Positions 29,273 through 37,643 of a stretch of 64,000 nt of DNA are shown one piece after another. Below the pieces are notes generated by a model. The model had not been told where the DNA came from. It worked only from the letters and a program-made list of their open reading frames with translations, and ran no database searches. The stretch lies in contig CM039009.1 of assembly GCA_017499595.2 (NCBI GenBank), positions 1,426,001 through 1,490,000 on the forward strand, written 5' to 3'. Both the position numbers and the translations under genes were made by a program. Origin of the DNA: Psilocybe cubensis. Lineage: Eukaryota. Each line of letters begins with the position of its first letter. Positions within the stretch are counted from its first letter, which is position 1.

Positions 29273-29741
29273 ATGAGGGAGTAAGAAAACTTGAGGCCTT
29301 AGCAACATCTAACCACCCGGCTCGTTATGCTTGTCGAATTCTTTTCATCGGGTCGCTTTCCCCTTCCTATGACCCGTTATCATATCAACCACGGTCTACC
29401 GCGACCGACTCATCTTCACATGAAGAACTCACAGAGGTTTTTAATACCGAGGGGAAGCTGGTTACACACCTGTTCGATGCGCTTACTTCCCTGCGCGGCG
29501 TTCAATATGTAAAGTGAGCATCAAATCGTCAATTATTTATTATACTTATTCAAACCGTTATTTGAAGGTGGTCACCTATTGGTAAAGGTGACCACGTAAT
29601 ACATCACATCGTAATGAACTCCTTAAAAATTCTTCCAAGCTTACGACGCCTTGAAATTGTCTGCGCTGATTGCGATATCCCACTGGAATTAGACGATCTC
29701 AGAGGTCTAGACGAAATCTCCATATCTACACAGAATACTTC

Positions 29742-29922
29742 TGTTAGGAGGAGACCCTACGGACGACGGAGAACGAGAAACGAGAACGAAACGTGTTGAT
29801 GGGTGAGTGAACAAAGAAGGAACTGGTGTCTATGTAGCTACTGAGTCCGACTAAGTAGCTACGGGCGTGTGACTCAAGCACGTGTGTGTGTCTACTGTTA
29901 GAGTAGGGGAACTACTCTAACA
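29742..29922 (-). repeat. 3' LTR (181 bp)
   Basis: TGTTAG...CTAACA termini; identical by eye to 36017..36197. Confidence 0.97.
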
Positions 29923-32900
29923 TCACCCCTCCCTTAAAGGTGGGTCCGCGGCACTGATACCGTGGTGTTTCTTGTAGTTGGTCAAGACAATTGAATTGGA
30001 AAAGTCAGCAGCGTTGGTCCAAGTAGCGTCGTCATCGGACGACCCTTCGAGGACGATTAAGTATTGAGTACGGTTTCGCAGAGATCTGTGTTGGAGCACC
30101 TTTGCGATGCCTGGAGGGGGTGTCGCGAGTGGGATGGAAACGGGGGCCTCAGTTGTGTTTTGAGAGTCAAAAGCGGGGGGCGTGAAACGAGATAACTTAG
30201 AAACATGGAAAGTTGGGTGAATAGACCAAGAGGGCGGTAGTTGTAGTGTGTAGGACTGTAAGCCAACACGTTTGGTAACGGGGAAGGGACCGTGGCGTTT
30301 AACGTCGAGTTTTTTCGATGGGCGAGAGGATTTTATGTCGGACGCGCTAAGCATAACGAGGTCGCCTACGTTGAAAACAGGGGCTTCGCGATGAGACGCG
30401 TCATACGATCGCTTCATGGCCTCCGCAGCGAGGCATAGTGCGGAGCTAGATTCCTTCGCGAGTGCTTCCATTTGGGACGCGAACTCGAGCGCGCGGGGAA
30501 CACGGTCGTCGGACAGGCGTGAGGGTTGCATGGGGCGTTTGGGATTGGTGCCATAATTGAGGAAGAAGGGTGAGTAACCGGTTGAGGAGTTGACCTTGTT
30601 ATTGATCGCAAATTCCGCGCAGGCGAGCCACTCCACCCAGTCATTCTGGCGCGCGTTGACGAAGTGACGTAGGTACTGCTCAATCTCTTGATTGGCACGT
30701 TCCGTCTGCCCGTCTGTTTGAGGTCTGAAGGCGGTGGAGGCGTTGTGGGAGATACCGAGCAAGTCGTTAAGTGCGCGAGTGAAGTTGGAGAGGAAAACTG
30801 AGCCGCGGTCGGATATGATTCTCCGTGGCAGCCCGAAATCCTTCCAGACGTGGTCACGGAATAGCTTGGCCAGGCCTTCGGAGGTGATTGTCTTTTTGCA
30901 TGGGATGATTCGCACCATTTTCGAGAGGCGGTCGACGACAACGAAGATTGAGTCGAGCCCGCGGGATTTAGGTAGGTCAACAATGAGATCACACGAGATG
31001 ATTTCCCAGTTTCGCGTTGGAATTTCGTTGGGCGTGAGCAGTCCTGCGGGAGCCATGCGTAGCGGTTTAGAGGACTGGCAACGGGTGCAGCCGTCGACGA
31101 AGCGGCGAGTGTCCTTAGCGAGAGTTGGCCACCAAAAGTCGCGCAAGACAAGTTCGGTTGTCTTCATCCGACCAGGGTGTCCGGCGGTGTGATGGTCATG
31201 GCAGTTTGAAAGAATGCGCTGACGAAGGTTGCCCTTGTTGGGTACGAAGACGCGGTTGTGCCAACACAACAGGCCATCCTCCAAAGTCCAACCAGGTAAG
31301 TTCTTGTGCTTGTCCCACATCTCCATGATTTGATGCTTGTGGACCCGAATGTCGGTGAGGATGGGGTCATCTGGGAGGTCGCAGGAGACAGTCCGACGGA
31401 TGTGCTCGGGTTTTAGTAGGGTGACGTCAATGTTGTCGGACTCGCCTTTGTCATGGTCGGGACGGCGAGATAAAGAATCAGCACATACCATCGTAGGGCC
31501 AGGTTTGTGGACAAGAACGAAGTTGAATTCGGCCAGTTGTAGGGACCATCGGGCTTGTCGCCTGTTGAGCTTCTGTGCCGTCATGAAGTACTGCAGGTTT
31601 TTGTGGTCAGTATGGATTTCCACGGGCGTATCGGAACCATGCAGGTAACGTCTCCAGTCTTCGAGCGATCGCATTATGGACAGGAGCTCGCGGTCATGTA
31701 TCTCGTAGTTTCGTTCAACAGGGGATAGCGATTTGGAAGCAAATGCGACAGGCCTCCATGTACCGTCAACAAACTGACTGAGTACGGCGCCAGTTGCATA
31801 GCCAGAGCTGTCGGCCTCGATGCGGAAGGGCGCGCCATCGCGGGGGAGCAGTAACACGGGGTGCAAGGCGCAGTCGGCCTTGAGCCTTGAGAAAGCGTCG
31901 TCTTCTGTGGATGTCCACTGCCAGGGTGAGGAGCCACCCAAAGCATGCAAGGGTGCGGCGGTGCGGGAGAAGTTCTTGATAAAGCGTCGGTAGAAATTGA
32001 TGAATCCCAAAAATTGCTGAACATCCTTGCGGTTCCGAGGTGTGGGCCATGAGGTGATAGCATTGACTTTCTTCGGATCCATTGACATGACGCCATTACC
32101 AACGATGACACCCAAGTACTCAACCTGTTCTTGTTCAAAGCAGCACTTCTCAGGGCGTAGGTATAACTTGTTCTCCTCCAGAATTGAGAGAACGCGTCGT
32201 ACGAGCAAGCGGTGGGAGTCCACATCGTCCGAAAAGATGAGAATGTCATCCATGTAGATGACAACGTGGCCCTCGGCGATGAGGTCTTTGAACAAGTCGT
32301 TCATCATGTTCTGGAAGGTAGCTGGTGAGTTGGTCAGCCCAAAGAACATTACCAGCGGTTCGAAGAGGCCACATTCGGTAATGAAGGCGGCCTTATGCTC
32401 GTCGCCTTCGCGGATGCGCACATTGTTGAAACCCCAGCGGACATCCAGCTTTGTGAAAACCTTCGCACCTTTTAGCTTGTCCATGAGATCGGATATGAGA
32501 GGCAGCGGGTAACGGTTCTTGATCGTCATGTCGTTCAGACGGCGATAGTCCTGTACCGGGCGCAGAGAGCCATCTTTCTTTTGGATGAAGAAGAAAGGTG
32601 CGGCGAAGGGGGAGATAGAATCGCGGATCCGGCCGGTTTGCTTTTCTTCTTCAATCCATTCCTTCACCTTCGCGCATTCGGCGGGGGACATGCGGTAGGG
32701 CTTAGCTTTGAAAGACTTTGCATCCGGCTTGAGGTTGATAGCGTGGTCCCACGGGCGACGTGGCGGGAGCTCATCAAACTCCTCTTTCGAAAAGACAGGG
32801 GCAAAGTCTTTCAGATAACGATCAGGGTAGGAAGCCGCCTCACGTTGTGCTCGTAGGTATTCCGCGGTGCATGGGTCGATTGATGAAGGGGTGTGGGTCG

Positions 32901-34104
32901 GGGGCAAGAAGTCATTCATGTCAATGGCGCACATTGATTCGCCGTCGGCAAGTTCGGTGGCGAACGCAGCAGCCCAGTCTTCCGCTGACAAGTTTTCAAA
33001 GGAGTCGTTGCAGTGTTCACCAGGGTCATGAGTGTCGTGGGTGGTGTCGGGGCATTCACGACAGACATTGATATAATCACCGTCAGGGTGGTGTGTGTTA
33101 ACAACATCAGCGCCACAAGATGTTGGACAGCGTGAAAAGCACAACTTGGCGGCACGCCAGTCGACAAGGGGGTTGTGGAACCATAGCCAGGAGTGTCCGA
33201 GTATCAGCGCAGATGACCCCGTGTTGGTGACTGAGAGGCGCAGACGTTCGACATGATCGTCGATGCGTATAATGAGGTGCACAACTTCCGTGATGGCTCC
33301 ATTGGAGTTACGGGAGCCGTCCGCGTTGTAAACACTCACCGGGTGTGGCAGTTGCTCGGTTGGTAGGTTGTGCGCACGCACGAAATCGGGGTGCACGTAG
33401 CAACCAGTTGCACCACTATCAAGCAAAGCATTTAGGGACACCGCAGATGCAGAGTCCGGCGCTGCCACATTGACAGCAATGTTGAGGCACTTGCTGCCGA
33501 TGCGGGAAATGTAATCGCGAGGCCTTTTGAGTTGGGAGAGGACTTCAGCGGCTTGTGTCCAGGGTAGGGTGCACAAGGCACTGATGAGGTCGTCATCAAT
33601 GTCAATCCACCTTTCCTTCGGAGCCCAAGCTTTCAGTAACTTCTCGGAGCGCCAGGAAGCACCCTTCAGTTGTCGTATTTGGGTTATGAGAGAGCGCGTG
33701 GCGGACGGAATCGAAGGCGGACATTCGAGAGAGGCATCGACGTTGGTTGGCGCTGGCAGGCATTCAAGAGAGGCGTCAACGCCGGCTGGGGCTGTGGGTA
33801 AAGTGGTGGGAAGTGTAGCGTTAGTTGTAAGGTTGACAATATCGTCAATGGGTGTTTTGTTGTGTGTGTCAGGTGGATGGGTGCGGTTTGAGGGGGGCGG
33901 CTCGTCAGGTTCGCACTCAGAGTCGCTGGAGTCGTCAGACTCTTCAGGCTGTTCGAGTGGTGGCGGCGAATCCGGGTCCGGGAGAAAGAACTCATCAGCC
34001 GAGAGTGCGAGGGGTGCGGGTACGGTTTGTAGTTGTGGACAGTCATGTAATTGAGATGTAATTACAGGGGAAGCGTACACAGGCGTCGAGGACGTACAGA
34101 TCAC
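29923..34104 (-). CDS. pol: Pol polyprotein (protease, reverse transcriptase, RNase H, integrase, degenerate chromodomain), probably expressed by -1 frameshift from gag
   Basis: ALLDSGATG (PR); VIYMDDILIF (RT); EADSSGYATGAVL and HTDHKNL (RNase H); HDHHTAGH..C..C, SCDLI, ISDRG, TERANQ (IN); GPF motif; YLIVLEG..DATW (chromo-like). Confidence 0.97.
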   Translation of the reverse strand: MICTSSTPVYASPVITSQLHDCPQLQTVPAPLALSADEFFLPDPDSPPPLEQPEESDDSSDSECEPDEPPPSNRTHPPDTHNKTPIDDIVNLTTNATLPTTLPTAPAGVDASLECLPAPTNVDASLECPPSIPSATRSLITQIRQLKGASWRSEKLLKAWAPKERWIDIDDDLISALCTLPWTQAAEVLSQLKRPRDYISRIGSKCLNIAVNVAAPDSASAVSLNALLDSGATGCYVHPDFVRAHNLPTEQLPHPVSVYNADGSRNSNGAITEVVHLIIRIDDHVERLRLSVTNTGSSALILGHSWLWFHNPLVDWRAAKLCFSRCPTSCGADVVNTHHPDGDYINVCRECPDTTHDTHDPGEHCNDSFENLSAEDWAAAFATELADGESMCAIDMNDFLPPTHTPSSIDPCTAEYLRAQREAASYPDRYLKDFAPVFSKEEFDELPPRRPWDHAINLKPDAKSFKAKPYRMSPAECAKVKEWIEEEKQTGRIRDSISPFAAPFFFIQKKDGSLRPVQDYRRLNDMTIKNRYPLPLISDLMDKLKGAKVFTKLDVRWGFNNVRIREGDEHKAAFITECGLFEPLVMFFGLTNSPATFQNMMNDLFKDLIAEGHVVIYMDDILIFSDDVDSHRLLVRRVLSILEENKLYLRPEKCCFEQEQVEYLGVIVGNGVMSMDPKKVNAITSWPTPRNRKDVQQFLGFINFYRRFIKNFSRTAAPLHALGGSSPWQWTSTEDDAFSRLKADCALHPVLLLPRDGAPFRIEADSSGYATGAVLSQFVDGTWRPVAFASKSLSPVERNYEIHDRELLSIMRSLEDWRRYLHGSDTPVEIHTDHKNLQYFMTAQKLNRRQARWSLQLAEFNFVLVHKPGPTMVCADSLSRRPDHDKGESDNIDVTLLKPEHIRRTVSCDLPDDPILTDIRVHKHQIMEMWDKHKNLPGWTLEDGLLCWHNRVFVPNKGNLRQRILSNCHDHHTAGHPGRMKTTELVLRDFWWPTLAKDTRRFVDGCTRCQSSKPLRMAPAGLLTPNEIPTRNWEIISCDLIVDLPKSRGLDSIFVVVDRLSKMVRIIPCKKTITSEGLAKLFRDHVWKDFGLPRRIISDRGSVFLSNFTRALNDLLGISHNASTAFRPQTDGQTERANQEIEQYLRHFVNARQNDWVEWLACAEFAINNKVNSSTGYSPFFLNYGTNPKRPMQPSRLSDDRVPRALEFASQMEALAKESSSALCLAAEAMKRSYDASHREAPVFNVGDLVMLSASDIKSSRPSKKLDVKRHGPFPVTKRVGLQSYTLQLPPSWSIHPTFHVSKLSRFTPPAFDSQNTTEAPVSIPLATPPPGIAKVLQHRSLRNRTQYLIVLEGSSDDDATWTNAADFSNSIVLTNYKKHHGISAADPPLREG
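29926..29935 (-). other. Polypurine tract AAGGGAGGGG
   Basis: Lies 3 nt (the pol TGA stop) before the 3' LTR and overlaps the last pol codons (LREG*). Confidence 0.85.
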
Positions 34105-34125
34105 TCGACGCAGAAAACAAAATCC
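34083..34125 (-). promoter_or_regulatory. Putative -1 programmed ribosomal frameshift signal (G GAU UUU plus downstream stem)
   Basis: GGATTTT at 34125-34119 in the gag frame, 7-nt spacer, 8-bp stem GCGTCGAG/CTCGACGC (34111-34104 with 34090-34083). Pol is in the -1 frame and opens just upstream of the slip site. Confidence 0.75.
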
Positions 34126-35354
34126 GGATCACTTAGCATGAAATCCTCATCAACCTCGACACACCGAATTTCCTCCTTATCGCCATCGGGGAGTGCATCG
34201 TAGCACTCTAGTACCGCTCGAGCGCGTTCAAGTTTGGCGCGAGATTTCTTCTGGAAGTCGAGATCTTTGGGCTTAGGGCAGGAGCGCATGAAGTGGCCGA
34301 AGGCACCACAGTTGAAACAGGGTAGAGACGCGCGAGTGTTCTGGGGGGCACTGACAGTGGAGGGAAGGGATGCATTTGGGGCGGGAGTGGTCTGGGGCAG
34401 GGGAGTTGTGTTTCGCAAAGCGGAGTTGGTCGTAGTCGAGGCAGAAGAAGCGGAGTTCGGTTTCCAAGTGGGGTTCCAATTCGCACGATGCTTCGAATTA
34501 ATAGTGGCGTCGCTCTCACGCAGTCTATGGTCCATAAGAATGGCAGCACTCTTCCATTCGGCAAAGGTAGTCATCTCCCTGTGCGTGCGACCGATTTCGG
34601 TGAGGATCCGCTCGTTGAGAGCCTGCTTGAAACATTGTATTAGCGACTCGTCATTGAACTTTGAGCGAAAAGCCAAATCATCAAAAATAATGATGAACTC
34701 TTGAGCGGGGAGAGAGTCTTGCTTGATAGACATAATCTCCCGGCCTGCGCGCTGCTGGATGTAATGGTGGAGGAAGGAATCCCTCACGCGCTGTTCAAAA
34801 TCGGCCCAGGTAGTAACGACGTATGCCCCGGTGTCCATCTGATCGATAATTTGATTGCGCCAGATGGCAGGGGCACCCGTTTTGAAAGAACTTAGTGCAG
34901 TGCGGACTTTAGCCTCATCGTTTTTGTAGGCATCCGGATCCGAGTGAAAGAAGTTACGCCAGGACGCCAAAAGGTCTTCGACAGCACCAGAGGAACCGTC
35001 GAACGCACCCGGAAAAGGGACTTTGTAGCTGCGGGAGTCGTGACGACACGATGGTTGAGGAGGGGGGTGTACAGGTGCAGGTGCGACCGTTTGGAGTTGT
35101 GGTAACGCGAGAAAAGAGCGGAACATTGTTTCGGTTTGAATGCGTGAGAGTTCCAATATGTCTTTCATTGATTCCCTGCTCGCTTCTTGATTGGCTTTGA
35201 TGAGTGCAATGATAGCGGGGTCGACACGCGAGTGCGGGTCGCGGGTACGGCCACGTTCACCTGTTCTGGCGGATTGAGCGTCGCCAGAATCATCGTCATC
35301 GCTGCGGCGTGGGGAGACAGATTTTGATTTACCCTTAGCTTTAGGGCCCGGCAT
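34101..35354 (-). CDS. gag: Gag protein with CCHC zinc knuckle
   Basis: FDGS..VEDLL..W, AKVRTALS..TGAPAIW, WADFEQ, IKQ retrotransposon-gag motifs; CFNCGAFGHFMRSC knuckle. Confidence 0.95.
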   Translation of the reverse strand: MPGPKAKGKSKSVSPRRSDDDDSGDAQSARTGERGRTRDPHSRVDPAIIALIKANQEASRESMKDILELSRIQTETMFRSFLALPQLQTVAPAPVHPPPQPSCRHDSRSYKVPFPGAFDGSSGAVEDLLASWRNFFHSDPDAYKNDEAKVRTALSSFKTGAPAIWRNQIIDQMDTGAYVVTTWADFEQRVRDSFLHHYIQQRAGREIMSIKQDSLPAQEFIIIFDDLAFRSKFNDESLIQCFKQALNERILTEIGRTHREMTTFAEWKSAAILMDHRLRESDATINSKHRANWNPTWKPNSASSASTTTNSALRNTTPLPQTTPAPNASLPSTVSAPQNTRASLPCFNCGAFGHFMRSCPKPKDLDFQKKSRAKLERARAVLECYDALPDGDKEEIRCVEVDEDFMLSDPDFVFCVE

Positions 35355-35483
35355 CGCAGAAAGAATATAAGGATACCAAGAAGAAAGAGAATAAGACGTG
35401 TAGGGGAGGAAACAAGAGAAAAAAATAACAGAGGAGTCGAGTATATGCGCGAAAACAGTGTAAGAAACGGAATATATGCGCTT

Positions 35484-36104
35484 TTAATTTTGGAATTCAA
35501 GTTCGGGGAGGCTGTCAGGGGTGGAAGGACGAGAGGGGAACAGAATATCTGCTTGTTCGCGAAGACGATTCTCGAAATCAGAGAGCAGAGCGGGATCCAA
35601 GGACAGAGACGAGCAGAGATGTTCAAAGTCTAGGCACAGTGCGTTATGGCGTTCCTGAAGTTCAAGGATCTGGTCAGCACGGGCTAGAAGACAGCGGCGT
35701 TGGTTCTCAGCGGCAGTCAAGAGCTCGGTTGTACGAGAGATTTCAGCTTTGCAATCAATTACTGCAAGAGTGAGGTCACGAAGCACGTTGAAAGATTCGC
35801 CTTTGTCAGAAGCAAAACGAAGAATATCTTCGTGTGCTAAAAGATCGCCTTGCAGGGAAAAGAGGCGCCAGGCGAGACGGTCGCAGATGTCGGTGCAAGA
35901 TGCAATGTCACGTTGGAGAGACGAGGGGAAAGGGGTGCAAGTTAAGGTAGACAGTTTGGCGAGTGGGGGGAAAGTAGAGAAAAGGGGTTTTGGTTTGTTG
36001 TTTAGTTCCTTCTTGATGTTAGGAGGAGACCCTACGGACGACGGAGAACGAGAAACGAGAACGAAACGTGTTGATGGGTGAGTGAACAAAGAAGGAACTG
36101 GTGT
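35484..36104 (-). CDS. Extra ORF upstream of gag (ORF0), predicted helical/coiled-coil, no AUG
   Basis: Stop-free from 36104 to 35484 (about 206 codons; 201 aa from TTG at 36089). Heptad-like LRDLTLAVIDCKAEISRTTELLTAAENQRRCLLARADQILELQERHNAL. Confidence 0.45.
   Translation of the reverse strand, partial: TPVPSLFTHPSTRFVLVSRSPSSVGSPPNIKKELNNKPKPLFSTFPPLAKLSTLTCTPFPSSLQRDIASCTDICDRLAWRLFSLQGDLLAHEDILRFASDKGESFNVLRDLTLAVIDCKAEISRTTELLTAAENQRRCLLARADQILELQERHNALCLDFEHLCSSLSLDPALLSDFENRLREQADILFPSRPSTPDSLPELEFQN
36004..36014 (-). other. Self-priming primer-binding site AAGAAGGAACT (Tf1-type)
   Basis: Starts 2 nt after the 5' LTR, lacks TGG, and is exactly complementary over 11 nt to AGTTCCTTCTT inside the LTR (36099-36089). 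Confidence 0.85.
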
Positions 36105-36197
36105 CTATGTAGCTACTGAGTCCGACTAAGTAGCTACGGGCGTGTGACTCAAGCACGTGTGTGTGTCTACTGTTAGAGTAGGGGAACTACTCTAACA
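36017..36197 (-). repeat. 5' LTR (181 bp)
   Basis: Identical to 29742..29922; on the element strand it is followed by the PBS-like 11-mer. Confidence 0.97.
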
Positions 36198-37643
36198 ACT
36201 TCGCGGGTAAAACAAGCACTAATATTGGACAACGTGGCTAAAGCAATATCTCACAATCCTAATCTGACCTCCATTGATGTATGCACCATTCGACAATATG
36301 GGCACATGGCCGATAAATCTCAAAGCTTCCATCAGCTTTTTAAGTATTATCCCACTTCTGCTTCGCCTCTGCGCCTCCGAAATTTGCGCCTGCAAGCCTG
36401 TCTCACGCGTTTTGACGAGATAACAATGCCACACCTTGTACACTTAACCTCCTTGATCCTGCTCGACGTGGATGATCCTTTCAGCGGCAATCACTTGGTG
36501 GAGACAGGTCAACACTCCAATCCAGACGTTTTGGCTCTATTCAAAGAGAGAAAACGCTATGGATCGTGTACAAAAGACATATGGAACGCATTGACCGCCG
36601 CTCGGGTCCGTTTAGAGAAAATTGTTATCGATAATATACCCCAATCTTTCCTCGATTATCTCTTGTCATACTCGGGGCTAAAAAAATTGTGCTTGATTTA
36701 TCCTGGCTCAGTGCATAGTGACTTTTCCGATGGGAAAGCTTCCGACGCCATGGCTGCTCTCCTTTTTGAACAATCGCTGAGCAACCACGCCAGGTCGCTG
36801 GAAAATCTCAATATATACGCGGCCTGGGAAGGTCTTTGGTGTTTTGGGGGCCATAACCGTAATGCCATCTCAAATCTTACAAAACTGAAGAATCTTGGTA
36901 TGAGTGTTAGATCATCGGACTTGTGGAATTACCGCGATAAAAGAAAGGACAAGAACTCTCTTCCCAAACGAGATCCTATAGTGAGTGCTTTGGGGTCATG
37001 ATCAAATAATATAATTATTTACTACCCTTTGACATTATAGCACGATCTCTTAGACATGACGGCACACTATATGCCAGATATTACAACTATTCGGATAAAT
37101 CCGGCCAGAAGGCGTCGAACTGGACCTAAGCTAATAAGACCTAAATCCCGATCTGGCGAAAAAATCAAAGACAGTGTGGAGAATTATGAACCTCCTCCCG
37201 GTTGCAGGCATATCCGAGCAATGAACATTGACTCTGGGGTTACCATATATGTTGGGGGGACGCATTCAACCGTTTAACAGTGACAAGAACTTTGCAAAAA
37301 GGGATGATGACCAAGCTCAAGAATCTGGCATCCTGATGTATGTTGCCAGAATTACGAACGATTAAAGGGCAGTGATTCTAAGTACTGGTGGTGGAGCGAT
37401 CCTTTTGATTGGGTGTGAGTTATGTATTCTGATAGCACATTGTCGAGAAATGCAGAATCATAAAAGCGCCTGTCTAGAACTGGTTGATGGTCTTTTGAAA
37501 TAAATTCTTGGTCATTTCAGACACTTGACATGGATGAAAATATTCCACGTTGAATCTAATAATACAATTGGTGTCCATATATACAGTCCGAATACTAATA
37601 TTACAACTTGAACATGTCAGTCTAGGTAGAAACATACTATCCA

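Follow-up and report, generated by a model that had tools for sequence, protein, structure and literature searches.

A long ATG-free open reading frame ahead of gag in a Ty3/Gypsy retrotransposon of Psilocybe cubensis, and the case for a candidate accessory protein

Can a retrotransposon make a protein from an open reading frame that contains no ATG? The question is raised by a locus on the minus strand of a 64-kb stretch of Psilocybe cubensis DNA (hereafter the window, to which all coordinates refer), where a complete Ty3/Gypsy LTR retrotransposon (29742-36197) carries, ahead of gag, an open frame that we call ORF0 (Table 1). The original prediction had described an uninterrupted sense frame of about 620 nt, running from inside the 5' LTR across the PBS to about 130 nt before gag and lacking an ATG throughout. 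The coordinates of this frame proved right, its strand being the minus strand, and the absence of ATG was confirmed, none of the 206 codons encoding Met; the ATG-free feature is in fact wider than had been stated, as described below.

Table 1. Positions of the element, its leader and ORF0 in the 64-kb window.
Feature	Position	Strand	Remarks
Target-site duplication, ACTTC	36198-36202; second copy 29737-29741		5 bp
5' LTR	36017-36197	-	181 nt, ends TG..CA; 100% identical to 29742-29922
Putative self-primer	36089-36099	-	11-nt exact complement of the PBS; taken as the genomic RNA 5' end
PBS, self-priming type	36004-36014	-	starts 2 nt after the LTR
ORF0 open frame	35487-36104	-	206 sense codons, no ATG, same frame as gag
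Candidate near-cognate start, CUG	35952-35954	-	codon 51; A at -3; shortly before the folded part
Probable ORF0 coding core	35487-35936	-	codons 57-206; based on codon usage, AlphaFold2 and homology over codons 87-206
ORF0 stop, TAA	35484-35486	-	stop of the second version at the same aligned position
Spacer	35355-35483	-	75% C+T, no ATG, no stop in any frame
gag	34101-35354	-	Retrotrans_gag domain, CCHC zinc knuckle; 417 aa; its ATG is the first in the transcript
pol frame	29923-34128	-	-1 frame relative to gag, 25-nt overlap
3' LTR	29742-29922	-	polypurine tract ahead of the LTR, overlapping the pol stop

The element and its ATG-free leader

The TG..CA LTRs with their target-site duplication, the domains of gag and the order of the pol domains place the element in the Metaviridae. 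Pol runs from protease through RT, RNase H and integrase (zinc finger and core) to a Tf2-type SH3 domain and a weak chromodomain. Matches above the curated Pfam cut-offs were obtained, in this order, for Retrotrans_gag, zf-CCHC, RVT_1, RT_RNaseH, Integrase_H2C2 and SH3_Tf2-1, and the Chromo match at residues 1342-1387 (E=0.026, 14.9 bits) stayed under its cut-off of 25.1 bits. No canonical slippery heptamer of the form X XXY YYZ was seen in the overlap of gag and pol (34101-34128). Within the window, tblastn and blastn matched the element itself only, and no further copies were found.

The site is empty in three sequencing runs (X11, X6 and X13). Sixty-one raw reads of X11 pass from the flank at 36198 into window positions 29707-29736, and the empty site is also spanned by one contig of X6 and one of X13, the latter guessed to be an RNA run, with coverage confined to the host flank and uninformative on expression. 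Despite its empty site, X6 contains near-identical pieces of the element (0-1 differences per 177-600 nt), whose word depth is roughly one third that of the flank, and the element must therefore be located elsewhere in that sample. Excision of the element in silico yields a plus-strand host frame of 324 codons across the site, which the insertion interrupts. Together, the identical LTRs and the empty sites indicate very recent mobility of the copy that carries ORF0 in its present form. Separately, the LTR depth in X11 is about twice that of the single-copy flank, with several indel variants, and the internal ORF0 region lies below single-copy depth; related LTRs or elements seem to be present in this strain and this exact copy absent.

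No tRNA-type PBS (TGG) was seen next to the 5' LTR. The PBS found there has its exact complement within the LTR itself (Table 1), a self-complementarity of 11 nt that was matched by 3 of 5000 shuffled LTRs, and when 36099-35340 is folded in silico, the MFE and centroid structures alike show the initial ~15 nt base-paired to the PBS. Judged by these features, the element appears to use self-priming of the Tf1 type, and its transcription would start at about 36099. As to other features of the LTR, its start (36171-36197, minus strand) is a perfect 11-nt inverted repeat with a 5-nt gap, the first 11 nt being complementary to nucleotides 17-27. The U3 region contains CACGTG (36159-36154) and TGAGTCA (36151-36145), 60 and 52 nt upstream of the putative RNA start, which we take to resemble bHLH and Gcn4/AP-1-type binding sites, respectively; no TATA box was seen in U3.

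ORF0 begins 94 nt inside the 5' LTR, crosses the PBS and ends 129 nt ahead of the gag ATG (35354), so that it lies in the same frame as gag, with one TAA and 43 sense codons between them. All 843 nt from the start of the LTR to gag are free of ATG in all three sense frames. Absence of ATG was found in 7 of 5000 dinucleotide-preserving shuffles of the leader, where the mean count was 5.4, and together with its flank the ATG-free gap reaches 920 nt, the longest on either strand of the window, ahead of gaps of 649 and 447 nt. The two other sense frames hold 13 and 15 stops over the leader, whereas the frame of ORF0 has none between 36104 and 35487. An open frame of 206 codons was reached by 33 of the 5000 shuffled leaders (p about 0.007; mean longest frame 105 codons), a test that is only moderately strong because the strand is rich in pyrimidines.

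At the start of the spacer that follows the ORF0 stop, the 9-mer GCGCATATA occurs twice, 31 nt apart (35442-35481, minus strand). The creation of an AUG by splicing within the leader was also considered and rejected, inspection by eye having revealed no donor ending in A combined with an acceptor followed by TG.

Coding signal, predicted fold and relatives of ORF0

Codon-usage log-odds trained on gag and pol of the same element gave +0.209 bits per codon for codons 57-206 of ORF0 in frame, against -0.228 and -0.737 out of frame, and all three antisense frames were negative (-0.56 to -0.64 bits per codon). Three control pieces of gag scored +0.20 to +0.30 in frame and were negative out of frame, and two control pieces of pol were positive in the pol frame only (+0.14 and +0.32). 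No coding signal was obtained for codons 1-56, which correspond to the R-U5 part of the LTR and the PBS (-0.12), or for the spacer before gag in any frame (-0.71 or lower). Since codons 1-56 lack the signal, the likely protein is one of about 150 residues and not of 206. The extra coding region proposed for the leader is supported by codon usage, by the predicted fold and by a second version of the sequence, but not over its first 56 codons, which do not look coding.

A fold was predicted for ORF0 by AlphaFold2 from a four-row alignment containing two distinct sequences. Helices are predicted at residues 61-100, 105-167 and 171-188, with 75 residues at a pLDDT of at least 90 and values of 88-98 over residues 61-140; residues 1-56 and 192-206 fall below 50. 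The predicted shape is a long helical hairpin followed by a third helix and a Ser/Thr-Pro-acidic tail. As a control, a 140-aa antisense ORF had no residue at or above 90 and a mean pLDDT of 55.6, a comparison that is imperfectly matched, the control having been folded from a single sequence. Hydrophobic periodicity peaks at 105, 105 and 100 degrees per residue, as expected for amphipathic or coiled-coil helices, and in this it agrees with the AlphaFold2 helices, so that the earlier description of the distal codons as an amphipathic helix holds. A homodimer prediction for residues 57-206, run without controls, returned a score of 0.01 and a mark of 0.32, values that speak neither for nor against a dimer.

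ORF0 belongs to no known family. No Pfam entry matched above its cut-off, the best being DUF7273 (E=0.026-0.059; 14-15 bits against a cut-off of 31). The ESM Atlas yielded nothing useful (best score 0.77), the best match among PDB sequences had E=0.11, and Foldseek searches of PDB and BFVD gave no match at E<=0.001, the top rows holding helical hairpins of a generic kind, ESCRT-III/Snf7 among them. Outside the helices, conservation is highest in the C-terminal Ser/Thr-Pro-acidic motif, where 11 of 13 residues are identical to the second version; its conservation in a tail predicted to be disordered suggests a short docking or phosphorylation motif. Among the read variants listed, those in ORF0 are one synonymous change (35883) and one Ala to Thr change (35873) and are uninformative; in gag the method works, with 26 of the 34 listed variants at third codon positions.

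A HMMER search with codons 56-206 against 1.84 billion cluster representatives returned two proteins at E<=0.001. One of them, P0002, is the Psilocybe cubensis gene model of this very locus, in which ORF0 from codon 25 onwards is joined to an upstream exon across most of the LTR; this join is probably spurious, the annotation having had to deal with a frame that lacks an ATG. The first 21-23 residues of the model come from the host flank (36332-36264, minus strand), antisense to the interrupted host frame. A further model, P0004, consists of 'ME' followed by all 206 codons of ORF0.

The other protein, P0003 (E=1.3e-19), represents a second, diverged version, with 56 of 120 residues identical to ORF0 (47%) and 75 of 120 positive, aligned without a gap up to the same stop. 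Its 120 residues contain no Met and are identical across P0003, P0005, P0006 and P0007, of which the last three were retrieved by profile and cluster look-ups, from sources that name Psilocybe cubensis. They are found in three contexts, namely behind a SERF-like exon (P0003 and P0006; Pfam E=0.0055, under the cut-off), behind 'MLE' (P0005) and behind an unrelated N-terminus of 165 residues (P0007), and in P0006 the likeness to ORF0 seems to extend about six residues further upstream. The occurrence of 120 identical residues behind three different upstream exons suggests several recent copies, and we infer from these sequences that the second version is likely a second family, to the copies of which gene predictors add any upstream ATG. 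The borrowed-exon pattern of P0002 recurs in three of the four second-version models, and an upstream ATG-bearing piece is joined to the frame in five of six models overall (P0002, P0003, P0004, P0006 and P0007). In P0005 a Met stands three residues ahead of the conserved block, so that the second version may have an ordinary AUG. The second version is known here from protein models.

The divergence between the two versions was compared with a neutral simulation, in which the 360-nt ORF0 segment was mutated at random (kappa 2) and the 7621 outcomes with 53-59 identical residues were kept; the simulation covered substitutions only, and the real alignment is free of indels. At this matching identity, 565 of the 7621 simulated sequences were free of stops. 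The mean BLOSUM62 score of the mismatches was -0.45, as against -0.80 (sd 0.20) in the simulations, and 305 of the 7621 reached the observed value; measured in this way, the mismatches between the versions are more conservative than neutral drift would leave them. The stop-freeness of the second version is partly a selection effect, because a protein database lists open frames only. This weakens the first of the two results and leaves that on substitution quality unaffected.

Relatives were confined to this species. A protein search termed 'near' matched 1 of 328 candidates and a profile search matched 4 of 419, all from Psilocybe cubensis. Pattern matches to the ORF0 profile (131) and to gag (127) in a metagenome scan, and 50 matches in a scan of viral contigs, yielded no confirmed hit, so that the protein, metagenome and viral-contig searches found no relatives of ORF0 in other organisms.

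A possible route of translation and its rivals

We consider ORF0 probably coding. The fuller reading that we prefer, with a probability of roughly one half, is that ORF0 is a genuine accessory gene whose product, of about 150 aa, arises by weak near-cognate initiation, while most ribosomes scan on to the gag AUG; included in it as a whole is the assignment of the element to a self-priming Ty3/Gypsy (chromovirus-type) family of Psilocybe cubensis or a close relative. The full-length RNA would begin near 36099 and, with the last upstream stop at 36107-36105, the frame of ORF0 would be open from the cap. Along an AUG-free leader of 745 nt, a minority of scanning 40S subunits would initiate at a near-cognate codon in good context, and most ribosomes would continue to the first AUG, which is that of gag, such that a single RNA would give rise to a little ORF0 protein and much Gag. 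A frame open from the cap and a coding-like signal in the last 150 codons fit a protein started in this manner, and the avoidance of ATG fits scanning to gag, given the ATG-free leader and, by analogy, the case of RTBV discussed below.

Possible starts were ranked among CTG, GTG and ACG codons with a purine at -3. The first is an ACG at 36069, which is out of frame and gives 16 codons, and the second is the in-frame CTG at 35954, which by its sequence context is the best candidate start codon of these three types. As to function, our guess of a particle-associated or Gag-regulating factor derives from the analogy with badna- and tungroviruses, which encode small proteins ahead of their polyprotein. 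A more specific scenario, in which the element follows a pararetrovirus-like polycistronic strategy and depends on a new, lineage-specific helical protein in order to transpose, perhaps one that associates with particles or doses Gag, is put forward tentatively and may well be wrong.

Several features would also suit an untranslated relic, namely a fragment of some host or foreign gene, or what was once the N-terminus of gag, acquired or cut off so recently that it still looks coding, in a leader kept clear of ATG solely by the need of ribosomes to scan 745 nt before gag. ORF0 has no start codon, it lies in the gag frame with a single stop between, its relatives are limited to one species, and P0005 of the second version starts with Met like an ordinary small gene. 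We nevertheless find such an origin unlikely, since two versions that are just 47% identical are both open, gap-free and Met-free and share the same end. The identical second version behind three upstream exons looks like a repeat and not like a single host gene. Moreover, the ORF0 domain was found in no longer protein, such as Gag or Gag-Pol, among the 1.84 billion representatives, nor in any of the 2670 candidates of a search termed 'longer'. Translation by a different route, either from the AUG of a host exon through chimeric spliced read-in or through rare read-through of the TAA into an ORF0-Gag fusion, strikes us as improbable. It is true that in five of the six gene models the frame is preceded by a piece that supplies an ATG, but this exon varies among the models, as expected from ATG-seeking predictors, and in a mobile element selection cannot act on a mechanism tied to the site of insertion. 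The continuity with gag, broken by one stop, would lend itself to read-through; yet an upstream start would still be required, and we know of no tendency of TAA followed by A to favour it.

Least credible to us is a chance frame in a pyrimidine-rich non-coding leader that acts at the RNA level, in packaging, dimerisation or a self-priming structure. Long frames do come easily to such a leader, shuffled versions of which average 105 open codons and reach 206 in 33 of 5000 cases, and codons 1-56 are LTR and PBS devoid of coding signal. However, the codon-usage signal is specific to one frame, and the homologue at E=1.3e-19 is recognised at the protein level, with conservative substitutions. Furthermore, the leader RNA is no more stable than its shuffles (z = +0.26; an equal or better fold in 11 of 20) and has no Rfam match at E<=1, so that strong RNA structure does not explain the open frame.

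If ORF0 is translated, fungal LTR retrotransposons can hide accessory genes that are missed by ORF finders based on start codons, and such frames are currently mis-annotated as chimeras with neighbouring host exons, as in five of six models here. It would also mean that the AUG-depleted, leaky-scanning polycistron of the Caulimoviridae extends to the Metaviridae, either through convergence or because both inherited an old strategy of translation. The element lends itself well to testing, with identical LTRs, an insertion that is absent from this site in three other sequenced samples and an interrupted host frame of 324 codons; expression, translation and transposition could be compared in nature between carriers and non-carriers.

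Comparison with known systems

Pairing of the PBS with the 5' end of the element's own mRNA has been described for Tf1 and proposed for Tj1 (PMC4600332). The present element resembles these in that the 11-nt complement of its PBS lies within its own 5' LTR instead of in a tRNA, and in that its integrase carries a Tf2-type SH3 domain. Tf1 and Tj1 are described with gag-pol only, whereas the element studied here adds a long ATG-free leader and ORF0.

Additional ORFs of unknown function in non-standard places are on record for other LTR retrotransposons. Plant Ty3/Gypsy elements of the Tat/Ogre group are described as having eORFs upstream of gag with PMD or transposase-28 (Tr28) domains (PMC4408406), and ORF0 is like these eORFs in kind and place, but has neither a PMD nor a transposase-28 domain and matches no Pfam family at its cut-off. 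In fungi, Gypsy elements are mostly described with one or two ORFs, and some are drawn with an 'add. ORF' of unknown function (PMC2864245), to which ORF0 can be likened as far as that description goes. An ATG-less ORF upstream of gag in a fungal Gypsy element was named in none of the titles and abstract openings that literature searches brought up, which is weak evidence that none has been published. Conserved non-AUG initiation as such has been reported in a filamentous fungus (PMC5487733).

Among retroviruses, glyco-Gag of murine leukemia virus (MLV) is described as starting, in frame with gag, at a leader CUG of the unspliced genomic RNA (PMC3042739), and ORF0 likewise has a candidate near-cognate start in the leader and in the frame of gag. 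Glyco-Gag runs on into Gag, whereas ORF0 ends at a TAA (35486-35484) 129 nt before the gag AUG; owing to this intervening stop, the ORF0 product would be a separate protein and not an extension of Gag of the glyco-Gag type.

A documented parallel in layout is rice tungro bacilliform virus (RTBV; Caulimoviridae), which like the present element is reverse-transcribing and related to Ty3/Gypsy. About 10% of ribosomes are reported to start at the AUU of its ORF I, and the rest to scan 900 nt without internal AUGs; changing this AUU to AUG drastically cut the translation of the downstream ORF III (PMC5902531). There are differences. In RTBV, ribosomes arrive at ORF I by shunting past a structured leader that contains short uORFs, whereas no shunt structure was seen here; RTBV also has a second upstream ORF, ORF II, which starts with AUG, whereas the present element has one upstream ORF. 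The start codon here is a candidate drawn from the sequence. ORF0 itself showed no similarity to viral proteins, in sequence by the HMMER scan or in fold by Foldseek. The likeness is one of arrangement, as both have a long AUG-less ORF upstream of the sequence for the capsid and polymerase (PMC5902531). In both, this ORF stands in an AUG-free stretch that ribosomes must cross (900 nt in RTBV, 745-843 nt in this element), and the first AUG belongs to the next gene; in the present element, no ATG occurs in any frame in the 843 nt that lead up to gag.
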